The notes below the pieces were generated by a model. The model was not told where the DNA came from, made no database searches, and saw only the letters and a list, made by a program, of their open reading frames with translations. Of a DNA stretch of 64,000 nt, positions 3,045-54,176 are shown piece after piece. The position numbers and the translations under genes were made by a program. The DNA is from Candidatus Yanofskybacteria bacterium. Lineage in GTDB: Bacteria; Patescibacteriota; Minisyncoccia; 2-02-FULL-40-12; GWA2-44-9. Position 1 is the first letter of the stretch. Every line of letters starts with the position of its first letter. The DNA lies in the NCBI GenBank assembly GCA_020852375.1, contig JADZAY010000019.1:15319-79318 (forward strand), in the 5' to 3' direction.

Positions 3045-6000
3045 TCACCTCCGATACACCGGTACCTGCGAGAGCGCGGTGTAGGGTACGGGAGACTGTG
3101 CGTACCAATTGAACTCGTTGGAGTTGATGCAGAAGACCTTCTTGAAGAAGTCGGGGTCTTCGGAGACGGCCTGGGCACCGGTCAGGTTAATGTGGTGGAG
3201 CATCCCCGTATCCTCGCCGGTGACCTGAACGGCGTAGACCTCTTCGGCGTTCGTTTCGCAGTTGCGGAAAATGCCGGAAACGGGGAACGCGTCGCGGGTG
3301 GTCGGGGGAACCGTCTTCACGACGCTCCAGCCGCCGAGGTGGCCGTAGAAGCCGAAGATGACGGGGTTCAGGAAGAGGCGCTTGTAGCCGATCTCGTTCA
3401 CGATGTAGACGTCGGGGTCGGCAGAGTCGGTGGCACTGATGACGTCCCCTTCACGGAGACCAAGCTGGTCGGGGGGTGTCGGGGTGCCGCTGCCGGAGGG
3501 TGCAGGAGCTGGAGGCGTGCTGGGTTGTGGCGCAGGAGCCGGAGTGGGTGTGGGGGTGCTCGCATCGGAGGTGTAGGTGACTGTGCAGGTGTAGCCAACA
3601 CCGGAGAGTGCGAGGAGGTGACCTTGTGAGTCGCAGTCGCCCCCGAAGATGCGAGTGTAGCCGGTGAGCGGGGTTGCGCTTACGGTGTAGGAGCCGGCCA
3701 GGGCGGGATAGCCAACATTGGGGTCGATGAGACCAGTGTTCAAGGTGAGCTGAACATCCGCAGCGGTTGCTGAGCCGCCGGAGATGGCGAGGGTGACGCG
3801 GATGGAGCCGGCGGGGTTGGAGCCGCCGCCGGACGCAACGACGCAGGTGCTCGTGAAGCCGTTGAGGTTCAGTGTGCCGGCGGTGATCGTGCAGGTGCCG
3901 GAGGTGATGAAGTTGTCTTGTAGGTCCCACGAACCACCGGCGCCGTTGAAGGTGAGGTTGCTCGCGTAGGTCTTACCGGCGGATGTGATGAGTTTTGGAC
4001 CGGTGATAGCGGTGAAGGTGAGCGGTCCCGTGTAGGAGTTGGTCATGCCGGAGCCGAGCGTGATACCACCGGCGATGTTTGCCGAGCTCGCACCGCTCCA
4101 GGTGCCCGTGAAGCCGGAGAAGCTGAGCGAGCCAATAGTGGTGTTGGCGGTATTCCAAGTGAGCGCGGCGGAGGTGCCGGTGGATGGATCGGTGACATCG
4201 CCGAAATTCGCGCCGCCGTTGAGGTTTACGGTGCCACCGGTGTCTGAGGCCATGGTGACGGAGGCAAAAGCATCGGAGGATGCCGCAGAGATTGTCTTGG
4301 CAGAAGTGGAGGTGTCGGTGATAGAGAGCCTTGGAGCGCTGGTGTAGGTGAGGTTCGTGTTCGTGGCGGTGTTCCAGACAGTGCTGATGAAGGTGAGTGT
4401 CCAGATTCCGGAGCCGGGGGTGAGCGTTCGAACATTGCTGTTGGAGCTGGAAAAGGTTCCGGTGGTGACGTTCTTATTGTTCGCATCAAAGGTGCCCGCG
4501 GTGAGCGTGAGAGCGCCGGACGTTAAGACGAGATCATCTGCGAGTTGCAGCGTCCCACCGCTTCCATTCTCAACGAATGTTGCGCCGCCTCCAATTGCTA
4601 CCCCATTCGAAGTGATGATTTGTGTACCGGAGGTCGCGGTGAAGGTAAGTGTGTGGCTCGTCAGCGTCGCTGTCATTGTTGGCGCAAGTGTGAGGTTGCC
4701 GGAGACATTGAACGGAGCGCCGACACTTTCGCTCCAGGTGCCTGTGAAGCCCGTGAAATCCAGATTATGGATGGTTTGAGCGTTTCCGCTTCCGCCGGCT
4801 GTGAAGACTGAGCTGGTGCCTGTTGCCTGCACAGACACATCACCAAAGTTTGCCGGATTCGAGCCGGTGCTTGTGAGGTTCACGGTGCCCGCGGTGGTGG
4901 GGGTGATGGTCACGGAGGTGAACGTATCATTTGCCCCCGCGATAATCGTTTTTGAGGTTGTCGTTGCGTTCAGCACGCTTAAAATGGGCGGCGTGGTCAT
5001 CGTCAGGTTCGTATTCGTGGTGGTTGTCCAAATAGTCCCTGTCCCGGTGAGTGTCCAAGTTCCAGAGCCGGGAGTGATTGTTCGGACATTGCTATTCGAG
5101 CTAGAGAAGTTGGCGGTGCTGACGGTCTGGTTATTTGCATCGAATGTCCCAGCGGTGAGTGTAAGGGTGCCAGACACAGTTACCGCTCCGCCGGCGGTAA
5201 AGGTGCCTGCGGTAAGTGTGAAGGTTGCCGCAGAGACCGTGTTTCCGGCGGTGAACGTTCCGCCGTTGATGGCAAGCGTAGAGGACGTTGAAATGGCACC
5301 GGCGTTCGTAATGGTTCCTGAGGTGAGGGTGAGTGTGCTGGTCGTTGTGAACGCATCGGCGAAGTGGAGGGTCCCGCCGGTGCCGCTCTTGCTGAATGCG
5401 GATGCAAATGACTTTCCGGCGGAGGTAACCGTCTGGGTTCCGGAAGTTCCCGTAAACGTGAAGGCCCCGGTTTGGGTCCGGGTCATCCCTGTGCTCATCG
5501 TGAGGTCGCCCGTGAAGGTCATATTGTTGGCACCAGACCATGTGCCCGCGAATCCTGTGAAATCGAGACTGTTGAATGAAAATGTCGGAAAGCCGGCGCT
5601 CGTGAAAGCGATACTCGTACCCGAAGTGACGAACACGTCATGGAATGCGATTGTCGCGGCAGTGCCACCCGTGAATGTTCCAGCACCGGACATCGAGAAT
5701 TCGATATCGTTGTAGCATCCGGCGGCGACATTGCCCGCACTCATGGTCGGTGCGGCACCGGTGAACTTCAGACGTCCGCTGGAGGTACAGGTGATGTTGG
5801 CAGTCGTAGCCATCGTCCATGCGGAACCGGTTGCGGTGACCGTCCAGAGCCCGCTCCCCATCGTCAGCGTATGTGCGGTGGCGCTGTTTGAAGAGAAGCT
5901 CGCGATAGTGACATTCTGATTGTTTGCATCAAAAGTGCCAGCCGTCATGCTCAGTGCGCCTGTCGTGACAAGCGTATCCGCAAGCTGAACCGTGCCGCCA

Positions 6001-47788: not shown

Positions 47789-49642
<1,854 letters not shown>

Positions 49643-51161: not shown

Positions 51162-51217
51162 ATACCAGTAGTATACGGGCATACCGAGGGCTCACAAGGT
51201 TGTCGGTGGACAATAAA

Positions 51218-51240
51218 CCCCCGAGTTTCCTCGGGGGTGA
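51218..51240 (-). terminator. Hairpin CCCCCGAG-tttc-CTCGGGGG; on the minus strand it is followed by TTTATTG
   Basis: It lies immediately downstream of the minus-strand Cys/His-rich mini-ORF. Confidence 0.4.
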
Positions 51241-51261
51241 GTTCTTCGGCTCATGTCATGC

Positions 51262-51459
51262 CTACTCGATGCCGTGGCATTCGCGGAGGTGGAGGCTGAG
51301 CAGAAGTGGGTGGACGTGGGTGTGGCCGTGTCCGCAGCCGGTGCAACATGGTATGGCGTGGCGGATGCCTGGTTCGAAGTGGCATCTACACATGCAGCGA
51401 TGAGTGCAGTGTGCGGGGGAGCCTTTTTCAACGATCAGGTCGATCGGGCCGCTGCTCAC
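51262..51459 (-). CDS. Small Cys/His-rich protein of about 65 aa, with C-terminus ...HCTHRCMCRCHFEPGIRHAIPCCTGCGHGHTHVHP...; a candidate metal-binding peptide or precursor
   Basis: A GTG start has AAGGAGG 4 nt upstream. Third-position GC is about 80%, whereas the competing plus-strand frames are mixed. A terminator hairpin follows the stop. The C-terminal 45 aa contain 7 Cys and 8 His. Divergent from the HExxH genes. Confidence 0.35.
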   Translation of the reverse strand: MSSGPIDLIVEKGSPAHCTHRCMCRCHFEPGIRHAIPCCTGCGHGHTHVHPLLLSLHLRECHGIE

Positions 51460-51528
51460 GGTGCCTCCTTGACTTATGCCTATTTTCAGTATATCAAGGG
51501 CTAGGTTCTTGCACAAGGAGGGGGACGC

Positions 51529-52083
51529 ATGCTCGGATTGATCGCCGTGATGCTCTTGCAGATCGCTCCGGTAGACGCCCTGCAGCCGGGCGCTCAGTAT
51601 TTCTGGAGCCCGCCCTGCATCGTCCAGAAGTCGGATCCGACCAACCGAGTCGAGCGGTTGTTCGCGAAGCACTTTACGGCATCCGGCGTTACGGTGCGGC
51701 TCGTGCGGTGTCGGCAGCCTGAGGGACGCTTCTCGCCCGTCTTCGCGACCGATCCGATCGAGGGTGTCGGGGTAGTTGCCATCTACAGCGAGGAATTCGA
51801 GGCGCTGACGTTCAGCGAACTCGCACTTGAGGGCCTTGTGGCTCACGAGGTCGCCCACATGACGCTCAAGGCGACGTGTCAGGGCCTCGGAAGCTTAGAG
51901 GAGTACATTTCGTGTGAGTCCGATGTCGACCATGAGGCCGCTCGGCATGCGAGTCCGGCCGCAGTGGAGGCGGCGCTGATCGCGTACCATCGGATGCATC
52001 TCCACATGGCCGCTCAAGCGCTTGCCGAGATCCGTCGACGTCTCATCGATGAGCGCTTGCCGCGGTTGCGGCGGCGGAGGTAG
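51529..52083 (+). CDS. Secreted HExxH zinc-metallopeptidase-like protein (minimal zincin), 184 aa
   Basis: The RBS AGGAGGGGG lies 7 nt before the ATG. A signal-like N-terminus is followed by the HEVAH motif and later by a conserved EH/CE...H block. Confidence 0.55.
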   Translation: MLGLIAVMLLQIAPVDALQPGAQYFWSPPCIVQKSDPTNRVERLFAKHFTASGVTVRLVRCRQPEGRFSPVFATDPIEGVGVVAIYSEEFEALTFSELALEGLVAHEVAHMTLKATCQGLGSLEEYISCESDVDHEAARHASPAAVEAALIAYHRMHLHMAAQALAEIRRRLIDERLPRLRRRR

Positions 52084-52085
52084 CT

Positions 52086-52589
52086 ATGGGATCTGCGTTG
52101 CTGATGGCCATGCTTGCGCTTGCCGAGGCGAACGAGCCGTATCGGATCGATCCTGTGCTGACCGAGCGGGTACAGGCACAGGCGCGGTCGTATGGGCTGG
52201 AGTACCGCGTCGTTGTTGCGGTGGTGCCGTCGTGGAAAGCGCAGGGCAAGGTGCAGGTGGAGACGCGTTTCCGAGGCGGTATCGTCGCCATCCTCGTTAG
52301 CCCCATTCTCTACGAGGAAATGGACGGCGGGGCGTTCAGGGCGATGTTCGCTCACGAGCTTGCACATACGCTTCGTCCGTGCGGGCTTCGTCCATACACA
52401 TCGATCGCCGAGCACAACGCATGTGAGCATGCGGCGGATGCACAGGCGGCCGCGTGGGTGGGGAAGCGGGAAGTCTTGCGCGGATTGTGCCAGGTGAGGG
52501 CGATCGGCTGGGACTGGCGATACAATACCGACGCGACACCGATGAACGAGCGCATCCGGCTCCTGCACAACCGAACGGACATACGGTAA
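52086..52589 (+). CDS. Paralogous HExxH zinc-metallopeptidase-like protein, 167 aa
   Basis: A signal-like N-terminus and a HELAH motif with the same architecture as the upstream gene. The start lies 2 nt after the upstream stop. Confidence 0.55.
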   Translation: MGSALLMAMLALAEANEPYRIDPVLTERVQAQARSYGLEYRVVVAVVPSWKAQGKVQVETRFRGGIVAILVSPILYEEMDGGAFRAMFAHELAHTLRPCGLRPYTSIAEHNACEHAADAQAAAWVGKREVLRGLCQVRAIGWDWRYNTDATPMNERIRLLHNRTDIR

Positions 52590-52630
52590 ACAAAGCCCCG
52601 ATGGAGATCGGGGCTTTTCGTGCCATTGTT

Positions 52631-52969
52631 TCAGATGGCGCCGAGAGCTCGCGCGAGCGCGGCGGTGCCCAGAGCGAGGAAGAGCAGCTGTCGCGGGTAC
52701 CACAGCCACATCCGCGCGTTCACCAGCGACCATCCGCAGGGGACCGTTGTTCCGGCAACGAGCGCCGTACCGCAGGCGAACCAGCCGATAGCGATGAGCG
52801 ACGGCGTGGCCGCGAGACTGCCCAGCGAGACGCACAGCGCGCTGGCGGCGAACACCGCGTTCCACGCGTGGTTGCGGATGGGGCGGTACCGTGTCTGCCA
52901 TCCGAGCATCTTCGCGATGTGGCGGTACAGCTCGCGTACCGCCATCAATGCCATCAATGCGTACACCAT
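52631..52969 (-). CDS. Hypothetical small membrane protein of 112 aa
   Basis: There are 3-4 hydrophobic helices. Same orientation as the downstream pyk gene. Confidence 0.4.
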   Translation of the reverse strand: MVYALMALMAVRELYRHIAKMLGWQTRYRPIRNHAWNAVFAASALCVSLGSLAATPSLIAIGWFACGTALVAGTTVPCGWSLVNARMWLWYPRQLLFLALGTAALARALGAI

Positions 52970-53027: not shown

Positions 53028-53840
53028 CTAGAGCTTGTTCACGTCGCGCTCGTACTTCTCGGCTTCTGTGCACACGCGCTCCATGTAGGTGACGGCCTCG
53101 ACGGGATACTTCCCGCGAGCGGTCTCTTCAGAGAGCATCACGGCGTCGGCGCCCAGGATGATGGCGTATGCGATATCGGTGATCTCTGCGCGGGTCGGCT
53201 CGGGATTTTCCACCATGCTCTTGAGCATTTCGGTGGCGACGATAACGGGGGTGCGATGTTCTTTGCAGTGGTGAACGACGAGCGCCTCGGCGAACGGAAC
53301 CTGCTCGAGCGGGATGCTCTGGCCGAGGTCACCGCGCCCGAGCATAACCGCATCGCTGGCGGCGATGATCTCTTCGATGTTGTCGAGCGCCTCTTTCCGT
53401 TCCACTTTTGCCATAACCTTCGGAAGCCCCTTCTCCGCGGGCACACTGCCGTTTCGCTTTTGTATCTCTTGTCGGAGCTGTTCCACATCCTTTGCCGAGC
53501 CGACGAACGAAAGGCACACATATTCAACCCACTGCGAAAGGCCGAAATCGAGATCAATCAGATCTTTTTCGGTGATGACCTGAATAGCATTCGGGTCCAT
53601 GTGGTGTTCGCTGCCGGTTTGTACACGCGGTCCGGAGAGGTCTTGGATGATGGGGATAACGCGGCCGGCGCGCTTGGCTGCTGCGCGAACGTTCTCGATC
53701 AGAGCTCGGTGCTCATCGTGCGTGCCATGGCTGAAGTTTAGCCGTGCGACATCCATACCGTGCGCGATGAGCGCGTCAAGAACTGCGGGATCCTTTGATG
53801 CGGGACCGATGGTACAGACGATTTGGGTACGAGTGGGCAT
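53028..53840 (-). CDS. pyk: Pyruvate kinase, minimal form: the A-domain barrel only, 270 aa
   Basis: The motifs are TQIVCTIGPAS, VARLNFSHG, DLSGPRVQTG and MLSEETARG. The roughly 100-aa B domain is missing after GPR..TG, and there is no C-terminal domain. Confidence 0.75.
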   Translation of the reverse strand: MPTRTQIVCTIGPASKDPAVLDALIAHGMDVARLNFSHGTHDEHRALIENVRAAAKRAGRVIPIIQDLSGPRVQTGSEHHMDPNAIQVITEKDLIDLDFGLSQWVEYVCLSFVGSAKDVEQLRQEIQKRNGSVPAEKGLPKVMAKVERKEALDNIEEIIAASDAVMLGRGDLGQSIPLEQVPFAEALVVHHCKEHRTPVIVATEMLKSMVENPEPTRAEITDIAYAIILGADAVMLSEETARGKYPVEAVTYMERVCTEAEKYERDVNKL

Positions 53841-53858: not shown

Positions 53859-54176
53859 CTACTCCCAAAAAATGAGTACAAGAGACGCAACGCCGAACAC
53901 GAACCCGATGAGCTGTGTGCGGGTGACGGTTTCGTTGTACATGCCTACACCGATTAACACGGCAAGAAGCGCCGATACGACCGAGAAAATGACGGCTCCG
54001 CGACCAAGGCCGGAGCCGTTGTGGAGTGCGAACAGCCAGAATGTATTTGCTGCGAGATATGCGGCGAGTGCGCCGGCCGCAAGAAGCGAGCCGCCAACCA
54101 GCGACCATTTTTTCGCCACGATATCAGCGACCAATTCAAAGAATATGAGAATGCCGAGCGGAAGGAGCCATTTCAT
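53859..54176 (-). CDS. Small 4-TM membrane protein of the DMT/SMR-like family (ArnE/EamA-like)
   Basis: A hydrophobic protein of 105 aa whose stop overlaps the eno start region. Confidence 0.5.
   Translation of the reverse strand: MKWLLPLGILIFFELVADIVAKKWSLVGGSLLAAGALAAYLAANTFWLFALHNGSGLGRGAVIFSVVSALLAVLIGVGMYNETVTRTQLIGFVFGVASLVLIFWE

Follow-up and report, generated by a model that had tools for sequence, protein, structure and literature searches.

A conserved Cys/His-rich mini-gene, missed in public annotation, beside two predicted M48-like peptidase genes in a Yanofskybacteria bacterium

Introduction

On a contig of Candidatus Yanofskybacteria, two adjacent plus-strand genes encode small HExxH proteins, and a reading frame of 65 codons, rich in Cys and His, points away from them on the opposite strand. 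This arrangement raises the question of whether the short frame is a gene at all and, if it is, whether its product has any connection with the peptidases. A preliminary description of the locus likened the product of the short frame to a metallopeptide, metallochaperone or RiPP-like precursor lying next to candidate peptidases. Here, the window, that is, the whole stretch of 64,000 nucleotides that was analysed (contig JADZAY010000019.1, positions 15,319 to 79,318), was compared with related loci. Its features are collected in Table 1.

Table 1. Features of the locus, in positions of the window
Feature	Position	Strand	Remarks
Intrinsic-terminator-like hairpin	51217-51238	-	9 bp, 7 of them G-C, then TTTATTG; 24 nt past the mini-ORF stop
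Mini-gene	51262-51459, including stop	-	65-aa Cys8/His10 protein; GTG start at 51459
Ribosome-binding site of mini-gene, AAGGAGG	51464-51470	-	5 nt 5' of GTG; read from the sequence
Promoter-like element of HExxH operon, TTGACT, ~17 nt, ATATCA	51469-51497	+	overlaps the mini-gene ribosome-binding site; putative promoter
Candidate mini-gene promoter, TTGTGC-17 nt-TATACT	51488-51516	-	back-to-back with the HExxH promoter; putative
HEVAH184 gene (NCBI IT406_03655)	51529-52083	+	184 aa; predicted soluble M48-like gluzincin, hydrophobic N-terminus
HEVAH motif of HEVAH184	51844-51858	+	aa 106-110
C129-E130-x3-D134 of HEVAH184	51913-51930	+	
HELAH167 gene	52086-52589	+	167 aa; predicted soluble M48-like gluzincin
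HELAH motif of HELAH167	52353-52367	+	aa 90-94
C113-E114-x3-D118 of HELAH167	52422-52439	+	
Bidirectional terminator hairpin	52592-52617	both	between the convergent HELAH167 and membrane-112 genes
Membrane-112 gene (IT406_03665)	52631-52969	-	predicted 112-aa membrane protein

Results

The ribosome-binding site and the downstream terminator first described for the mini-ORF are both present, and the hairpin folds with a free energy of -22.1 kcal/mol (z -3.7). The GC content at the third codon position was measured at 0.73, below the approximately 80% given earlier. The Cys/His-rich excerpt quoted at that time does hold 7 Cys and 8 His but spans 35 residues, not 45; in total, 8 Cys and 10 His occur among the 65 amino acids, and no signal peptide was found in the mini-protein. 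Its candidate promoter matches the consensus at 8 of 12 positions and was not called by a consensus promoter scan, which also left the TTGACT/ATATCA element uncalled. All nine aligned loci share the TTGAC of that element without change, L007 and L008 among them, where the mini-gene is missing. The divergent start codons of the mini-gene and HEVAH184 are 69 nt apart. In three lineages, the divergent pair of mini-gene and HExxH gene apparently has overlapping promoter regions. Beyond the peptidase genes, the bidirectional hairpin reaches -19.1 kcal/mol on the plus strand and -18.2 on the minus strand (z about -3.7), and each strand has a T-run. No Rfam family matched anywhere in the window.

The exact sequence of the mini-protein is not present in a collection of 15 billion proteins, which indicates that the mini-gene is unannotated; the protein records of both NCBI genomes lack its product, and a 69-aa homolog in L003 and L004 is predicted by gene callers. 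A word-indexed protein search and a first metagenome scan returned no matches, a scan of the genome collection found the L002 genome only, and a degenerate DNA pattern for CTGCGHGH gave 61 matches, of which only L050 was genuine. With phmmer, a library of 1.84 billion proteins yielded 23 matches, and about 15 of these are small proteins of 68-82 aa, with E values from 1e-14 to 7e-4. Three long proteins that matched in multiple stretches (P0025, P0026 and P0030) are low-complexity repeat or ankyrin proteins and were discarded as spurious. Relatives of the mini-protein were not found in the phage, plasmid and IMG/VR collections.

Frame analysis over 51262-51459, proposed at the outset as a refuting test of the mini-ORF, does favour the plus strand when it is based on codon usage: with log-odds derived from 16 long genes in the window, the plus frame scores +0.17 bits per codon and the mini-ORF -0.35. 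Comparative evidence overrides this preference. Across 41 core codons of six DNA homologs, 20 residues are invariant in the sense frame, and the codons of 14 of these vary synonymously; the antisense frame keeps 6 invariant residues, none with synonymous variation. Pairwise comparison gives 162 synonymous and 236 nonsynonymous differences when the sense frame is read, and 25 and 373 when the antisense frame is. The codon positions differ in variability (34/25/55), and in L074 a stop lies inside the antisense frame. The reading in which an 83-aa plus-strand ORF (51253-51504) is the true gene, and the Cys/His-rich frame its antisense shadow with GCN and GTG read backwards as NGC and CAC, thus has the codon-usage score in its favour but is almost certainly wrong and was ruled out by these tests, since its protein is not conserved between the window and L002 (global BLOSUM62 score 47, where the mini-ORF reaches 171), and the frame lacks a ribosome-binding site, starts abutting the hairpin, crosses the conserved HExxH promoter at its 3' end, and has neither an entry in the protein collection nor a known homolog family.

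The mini-ORF exceeds what chance would produce, because it has about 15 homologs and a codon-position substitution pattern that fits this frame only. Judged by these comparisons, it is a genuine conserved gene missed in public annotation, as the preliminary description had supposed, and the codon-usage preference for the plus frame is an artefact of the Cys/His-rich composition. The arrangement of AAGGAG(G), 4-5 nt and GTG recurs in L002 and L071. In L002 and L050, the homologs are likewise followed, at the corresponding position, by hairpins with T-runs whose sequences are unrelated to that of the window; a terminator hairpin thus follows the mini-gene stop in three lineages in all, and L002 has both the start arrangement and the hairpin.

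Conservation in the mini-protein family forms a single block of 45 residues with fixed spacing, preceded by 15-20 variable N-terminal residues. Its consensus begins with PAxCxH[RQ]CxCxCH, 5-8 residues, H, 3 residues and CC, and continues as x2-C-x2-GH-x2-I-x4-L-x2-H-x3-CH. Fourteen Cys and His are invariant or nearly so in the alignment (C18, H20, C22, C24, C26, H27, H34, C38, C39, C42, H46, H57, C61 and H62), among them the invariant C39-x2-C42, 14 residues, H57-x3-C61-H62; R21, T40, G45, I49 and L58, which are not ligand candidates, are strongly conserved too, with exact spacing. This residue pattern supports the earlier suggestion of a metal-binding peptide, and the product is probably a small metal-binding protein.

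The 16 family members matched no NCBIfam or Pfam model, including the zinc-finger (zf) models of Pfam, and no PDB family; the sole PDB profile match was the Miz-1 C2H2 finger, at a non-significant E value of 5. A similarity to methionine aminopeptidase (6mrf, E 0.25), which suggested that the mini-ORF might be a fragment of such a gene, was set aside, as the family profile does not reproduce it and it is weaker in L002. AlphaFold2 places a helix bearing H57, C61 and H62 at residues 51-62, in a model of low confidence (pLDDT 62) for which Foldseek returned no structural neighbour. PADLOC and PHROGs gave no matches for the four genes and two neighbour families, and no paper on small cysteine-rich zinc proteins in these bacteria was found.

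The two tandem plus-strand HExxH genes, separated by 2 nt, were confirmed as first described, and the paralogy then proposed for them was borne out. BLASTP between HEVAH184 and HELAH167 gives E 0.002 (28% identity over 50 aa), and profile-profile comparison gives a probability of 96.9% and E 1.8e-10 over 98 columns, so that the sequences point to a paralogy that is real but old. Of the similar Cys/Glu/His blocks reported downstream of the motif, C-E-x3-D is common to both proteins. All 11 members of the two paralog families carry HExxH and CExxxD unchanged, and the third zinc ligand, named earlier as a test of these proteins, is retained as the Glu of CExxxD, predicted to be E130 and E114. The same form is known from MecR1, whose putative zinc-binding motifs are HE205LSH and E245KVCD, that is, HExxH and ExxxD (PMC6925264). 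Hydrophobic, signal-peptide-like N-termini (MLGLIAVMLLQIAPVDA in HEVAH184; MGSALLMAMLALAEA in HELAH167) suggest that both proteins are probably exported.

As to family, Pfam Peptidase_M48 is matched by five of the 11 members (best E 5.5e-6), and no Pfam model matched the window's own two proteins at E <= 1, which places them below every Pfam threshold. Two relatives carry a precomputed PF01435 assignment, and the family profile matches the HtpX domain 3cqb with E 0.007. Solved M48 structures share 12-18% sequence identity with these peptidases, and the gluzincin catalytic-domain fold of M48 was recognised in them. On fold prediction and motifs they are M48-like, yet outliers in sequence. Among the families first considered, M48/M56 was thus correct, and SprT-like and ImmA/IrrE (M78) proteins were not the best match by sequence or fold. 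Minigluzincin (M95) identity was rejected as well: the peptidases have neither its third-His ligand nor its soluble scaffold of ~105 aa. IMG/VR contained no relatives of the HELAH family.

In relatives, the membrane-112 gene directly precedes the mini-gene and is read in the same direction; 11-13 nt separate its stop from the mini-gene start in L050 and L075/L076. The order in L075/L076, which have no HExxH homolog, is enolase, LOG, PK, 112 aa, mini-gene, 141 aa, 248 aa, BipA; the P0014 contig has enolase, PK, mini-gene, 206 aa, ORF11_beta, BipA, and membrane-112 is missing from it and from L002. Relatives without HExxH genes thus keep the mini-gene in the same slot (enolase, PK, membrane-112 where present, mini-gene, then further genes up to BipA). 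HExxH genes without the mini-gene occur in L007, L008 and L072. The two are divergent neighbours in the window, L002 and L071; they stand one gene apart in L050, where the membrane gene and mini-gene share a strand and the HELAH homolog is divergent.

Discussion

Our results indicate that the region may hold two unrelated things in one variable syntenic slot of Yanofskybacteria-like Parcubacteria. We consider it moderately probable that the mini-gene encodes a small cytoplasmic multi-zinc protein and that its neighbours are M48-like peptidases with which it shares no more than this slot. The ancestral mini-gene would have been the last of a co-directional array of enolase, PK, the 112-aa membrane protein and the mini-gene, closed by a terminator, and from this position its product probably works together with membrane-112 or serves as an adaptor or regulator of the small zinc-finger type. 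In the lineage of the window, the membrane gene and the mini-gene are separated by the peptidase pair, which is encoded on the other strand. Because 8 Cys and 6 His are fixed within some 45 residues and there is no signal peptide, the mini-protein is most likely cytoplasmic and structural and would bind several metal ions, about three of zinc. It would consist of an N-terminal CxHxCxCxCH...H...CC cluster and a C-terminal C-x2-C...H-x3-C/H finger, with the predicted helix at residues 51-62 carrying ligands of the latter. The peptidases, in turn, would be anciently duplicated, minimal soluble M48/M56 gluzincin catalytic domains, probably exported, in which both HExxH histidines and the CExxxD glutamate would coordinate zinc.

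The mini-protein could also buffer or detoxify Zn, Cu or Cd in the manner of a metallothionein, independently of any specific protein partner. Its 18 Cys and His in 65 residues agree with such a role, as do the CxCxC and CC motifs of the N-terminal half, which are typical of metal-thiolate clusters and occur in bacterial metallothioneins of the SmtA type. This role is nevertheless unlikely, given that R21, T40, G45, I49 and L58 are strongly conserved at exact spacing, that the predicted helix favours a defined fold over a plastic metallothionein, and that genes for metal efflux or uptake are absent nearby.

Similarly small is the chance that, in the lineage of the window, a functional coupling joins the mini-protein, as metal sensor, regulator or metallochaperone, to the zinc peptidases, through overlapping back-to-back promoters or through the supply or buffering of zinc. 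In its favour, three lineages retain the divergent layout, in which 69 nt part the start codons; the ribosome-binding site of the mini-gene shares bases with the conserved TTGAC box that belongs to the HExxH promoter; and the C-terminal half of the protein resembles a C2H2 or C2HC finger. However, co-occurrence is not strict, no DNA-binding domain was detected in the mini-protein, and there is no established mechanism by which zinc would be delivered from the cytoplasm to exported enzymes. The loci, moreover, all come from a single syntenic region, in genomes that are close relatives, so that adjacency may simply have been inherited. A lineage-specific functional or regulatory coupling of the mini-gene and the HExxH genes may exist. 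We give only a slim chance to the boldest form of this proposal, in which an undescribed multi-metal fold, with 14 ligands in 45 residues and restricted to Parcubacteria, would serve the divergent, exported M48-like peptidases as a zinc-responsive regulator or partner by way of the overlapping promoters.

The link that the preliminary description suggested, between a RiPP-like precursor or metallopeptide and candidate peptidases, found no support, and a RiPP-like or metallophore precursor whose leader the HExxH peptidases would trim, or which they would otherwise process, is very improbable. In its favour, the ORF is small and rich in Cys and His; its divergent neighbour is an HExxH gene in three lineages (the window, L002 and L071), and in L050 no more than one gene stands between the two. 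Each family, however, exists without the other, and neither a maturase (radical SAM, YcaO, Lan or MNIO) nor an exporter occurs within ~5-8 kb on each side in four annotated contexts (the check covered L001-L004, the P0014 contig, L075/L076 and the P0023 contig). None of the 16 family members matches an NCBIfam or Pfam precursor model, and the whole 45-residue core is conserved like a folded domain, with no leader-plus-core layout. The peptidases have signal-peptide-like N-termini and the mini-protein has none, which would put them in different compartments.

The preferred reading, of a multi-zinc protein beside unrelated peptidases, does not overturn present understanding. It does add to the proteome of candidate-phyla-radiation bacteria, of which little is understood, a conserved, unannotated family of putative small metalloproteins with no relative in Pfam, NCBIfam or the PDB. 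The mini-gene also exposes a systematic blind spot: where a Cys/His-rich mini-gene lies in GC-rich DNA, codon scoring picks the Ala/Val/Gly-rich antisense frame, and only comparative data recovered the gene here.

Compared with known metal-binding proteins, the C-terminal half of the mini-protein is like C2H2 and C2HC fingers, with C-x2-C, 14 residues, H-x3-C-H and a predicted ligand helix. Its ligand spacing is two residues longer than that of the classical C2H2 finger (C-x2-4-C, 12 residues, H-x3-5-H, beta-beta-alpha), and neither sequence nor fold searches matched the protein significantly to any family of zinc fingers or metallothioneins; no described counterpart to 14 fixed ligands in one 45-residue unit was found. 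With 167-184 aa, the peptidases lack the transmembrane chamber, TPR or sensor domain of M48 (Ste24/ZMPSTE24, HtpX, BepA) and M56 (BlaR1/MecR1) enzymes, and differ from both in an invariant Cys just before the ligand Glu and another Cys after HExxH. The minigluzincins (MEROPS M95: proabylysin, projannalysin, selecase) are cytoplasmic archaeal and bacterial proteins of ~105 aa with a third His ligand (PMC6925264). The peptidases described here are 60-80 aa longer and have an N-terminal hydrophobic segment and a Glu motif of the M48/M56 type, and with them the concept of a minimal, soluble M48 scaffold would come to include proteins of an episymbiotic lineage that are probably exported.

Results

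The features listed in the preliminary description of this locus were all found in the window, and its observation was confirmed; its interpretation was right in part only. The two HExxH genes, encoding HEVAH184 and HELAH167 (184 and 167 aa), are separated by 2 nt. Their products are 100% identical to NCBI IT406_03655 and IT406_03660, respectively, both from one metagenome-assembled genome of Candidatus Yanofskybacteria (Parcubacteria, candidate phyla radiation). The mini-ORF, on the opposite strand, begins with GTG 5 nt after an AAGGAGG, and encodes 65 residues, including 8 Cys and 10 His, with a third-position GC of 0.73. It is followed on the minus strand by a 9-bp hairpin with 7 G-C pairs (−22.1 kcal/mol, z −3.7) and then by TTTATTG.

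Positions of features in the window
Feature	Position	Strand	Remark
AT-rich segment	1-1100		
ORF, 96 aa	50-340		AT-rich
ORF, 128 aa	679-1065		AT-rich
ORF, 2003 aa	3045-9056	−	
BipA	47789-49642	+	
ORF, 119 aa	49667-50026	+	
Exported protein, 372 aa	50064-51182	−	Pfam ORF11_beta in relatives
ORF, 83 aa	51253-51504	+	antisense to mini-ORF
Mini-ORF	51262-51459	−	
HEVAH184	51529-52083	+	
HELAH167	52086-52589	+	
Bidirectional terminator	52592-52617		sets HExxH pair apart from membrane-112 gene
Membrane protein, 112 aa (membrane-112)	52631-52969	−	
Short pyruvate kinase (PK)	53028-53840	−	
EamA-like	53859-54176	−	
Enolase	from 54173	−	

Codon log-odds scoring trained on 16 long window genes gave +0.17 bits per codon to the 83-aa plus-strand ORF and −0.35 to the mini-ORF. 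The plus-strand preference, named beforehand as the result that would count against the mini-ORF, was therefore seen, but it is overridden by comparative data. It is an artefact, since the two frames lie in exact antisense register: Cys (TGC) and His (CAC) codons read backwards are Ala (GCA) and Val (GTG), and the antisense Ala/Val codons of a Cys/His-rich protein resemble typical coding sequence. L002 (GCA_020847715.1) is a related locus with 86% identity in its HEVAH homolog; aligned with it, the window mini-ORF scores 171 (BLOSUM62) with all core Cys and His kept, against 47 for the plus frame. Over 41 gap-free core codons of six DNA homologs (window, L002, L050, L073, L074, L075), 20 residues are invariant in the sense frame, and 14 of these use more than one synonymous codon; the antisense frame has 6, none with synonymous variation. 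Pairwise synonymous/nonsynonymous differences are 162/236 in sense and 25/373 in antisense, and variability per codon position is 34/25/55. The AAGGAG(G), 4-5 nt and GTG start are kept in L002 and L071, terminator hairpins with a T-run and of unrelated sequence directly follow the stop in L002 and L050, and a 69-aa homolog was predicted by independent gene callers in L003 and L004. These comparative data show that the mini-ORF is a gene. The 83-aa ORF was rejected, being unconserved across homologs and interrupted by a stop codon in L074. Neither protein sequence occurs in a 15-billion-protein collection, and the mini-gene is thus unannotated in the public record.

A word-indexed protein search with the mini-protein gave no matches; exhaustive phmmer against 1.84 billion representative proteins returned 23, about 15 of which are proteins of 68-82 aa (E 1e-14 to 7e-4). 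In the family alignment C18, H20, C22, C24, C26, H27, H34, C39, C42, G45, H46, H57, C61 and H62 are invariant and A16, C38 and I49 nearly so. The N-terminal 15-20 residues vary, without a signal peptide, and conservation does not extend to the window protein's H17, H44, H48 and H50. Two proteins, P0024 (92 aa) and P0028 (218 aa), neither with a Pfam match, each carry two copies of the N-terminal module alone, CxCxCHxxPxxxHxxPCC, which suggests that this motif is an independent metal-binding unit distributed more widely. Family members have no match among Pfam, NCBIfam, PADLOC or PHROG models, and no PDB sequence matches the mini-protein significantly; the sole PDB profile match, the Miz-1 C2H2 finger over CC-x2-C...H...CH, has a non-significant E of 5. 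The AlphaFold2 model (16-sequence alignment) is of low confidence (pLDDT 62), with one clear helix, residues 51-62, bearing H57, C61 and H62, and Foldseek found no structural neighbour for it.

HEVAH184 and HELAH167 have 4 and 8 homologs, all on Parcubacteria-like contigs, and hhalign shows the two families to be homologous (probability 96.9%, E 1.8e-10), with A-H-E-x-A-H, C-E-x3-D and a later Arg invariant in the joint alignment. L002 and L008 also have the two genes in tandem. P0009 (247 aa; 1234-bp JGI contig) is a single predicted protein that contains the C-terminal portion of a HEVAH-type domain together with a whole HELAH-type domain; it may reflect natural fusion of the pair or a read-through/frameshift gene call. 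No Pfam model matched the two window proteins; 5 of 11 family members matched Peptidase_M48 (best E 5.5e-6), 5 of 11 weakly matched SprT-like, and two relatives have a precomputed PF01435 assignment. The family profile also matched the HtpX domain 3cqb (E 0.007). The HELAH167 AlphaFold2 model is confident (pLDDT 88, pTM 0.84); the values listed after it are ZMPSTE24 12.7, BepA 12.2, Ste24p 10.9, M48 peptidase 3c37 10.5, proabylysin 9.7, selecase 8.9, projannalysin 8.5, BlaR1 8.1 and Spartan 6.8. The M48 matches and the ExxxD motif together identify both proteins as soluble minimal M48/M56-type gluzincins. The N-termini are hydrophobic and end in VDA and AEA, and conserved Cys flank both active-site helices; from these sequence features the proteins may be exported and disulfide-stapled.

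All compared loci fall in one syntenic interval, PK to BipA, of closely related genomes. The mini-gene stands next to an HExxH gene, in divergent orientation, in the window, L002 and L071. In L050 membrane-112 and the mini-gene are co-directional, 13 nt apart, and followed by a terminator, with the HELAH homolog divergent from both. The HEVAH homolog directly faces a 212-aa gene in L008 and an unrelated gene in L007, and in L072 the HELAH homolog faces the membrane-112 gene, the mini-gene being absent before ORF11_beta. The 276-kb contig of L075/L076 reads enolase, LOG, PK, 112-aa membrane protein, mini-gene (11-nt gap), 141/166-aa lipoprotein, 248-aa protein and BipA, with no HExxH homolog in 16 kb. 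The P0014 contig has enolase, PK, mini-gene, 206 aa, ORF11_beta and BipA, and that of P0023 has enolase, EamA, PK, 249 aa, 68 aa, mini-gene and 470 aa. The HExxH pair of the window lies between membrane-112 and the mini-gene, in the opposite orientation to both.

Local rearrangements cluster in the PK-BipA interval. In the L002 lineage the ORF11_beta-like gene and the mini-gene are separated by two genes, one of 212 aa and one of 107-134 aa (L002 4483-5611); the window lacks the former, and its homolog of the latter, the 119-aa ORF (45-48% identity), lies beyond the 372-aa gene. The window PK has only 270 aa, its sole match being the PK barrel domain; relatives' PKs are equally short (263-283 aa), and it is therefore a conserved truncated PK, not a pseudogene. 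The L002 ORF11_beta-like protein, 79% identical to the 372-aa protein adjoining the mini-gene, shows 52% identity over its residues 39-192 to the C-terminal ~140 residues (nt 3048-3458) of the 2003-aa ORF, which has no Pfam match; the two window proteins appear to have a module in common. At the window edge, an AT-rich segment (GC 38%, against 55-62% in the rest) appears to be an island that is foreign or was acquired recently.

Discussion

The mini-gene is real and unannotated, and its product belongs to an uncharacterised Cys8His6 family of small proteins. We infer a cytoplasmic product with about three zinc sites, which would combine an N-terminal cluster of thiolate and imidazole ligands with a C-terminal finger of C2HC or C2H2-like type. 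Most probably it serves as a structural multi-zinc protein linked to the enolase/PK/membrane-112 array, not to the peptidases. Any association with the peptidases, as proposed earlier, is loose at best according to the context look-ups, and the adjacency is best explained by shared position, given that all loci lie in one syntenic interval. A ~160-aa lipoprotein family without a Pfam match (L073 395-880; L075 8263-8688; L076 1376-1876) lies immediately after the mini-gene in two contigs that otherwise differ, with motifs DGDLIIELETDPRLVNA and HGGHMEIHP and 65-69% identity. Its gene overlaps the mini-gene stop in L073 and L076, and it may be a truer partner than the peptidases. Lineage-specific regulatory interference or coupling between mini-gene and HExxH genes is possible, because the promoter-like TTGAC box of the latter overlaps the mini-gene RBS and stands back-to-back with a candidate mini-gene promoter (TTGTGC, 17 nt, TATACT); the box is invariant in 9/9 loci, including those without the mini-gene. 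The suggested RiPP-like precursor was not borne out, as the absence of a maturase or exporter from every mini-gene context examined and the conservation of the whole domain argue against it.

The value of the locus lies in a new small metalloprotein family, with putative metal binding, and in a lesson for gene finding; a new system is not demonstrated. As for the peptidases, the M48/M56 affinity suggested for them agrees with the family matches, the profile and the form of the ExxxD, and the predicted ligand set, including the third zinc ligand, is intact (HExxH + CExxxD). They are new, divergent members of the known M48/M56-type gluzincins. The concept of mini-Glu-zincins has been described (PMC3890501), and minigluzincins use a third His as ligand in place of the ExxxD Glu, whereas the HExxH proteins carry an ExxxD of the same form as the putative zinc-binding motif E245KVCD of MecR1 (PMC6925264).
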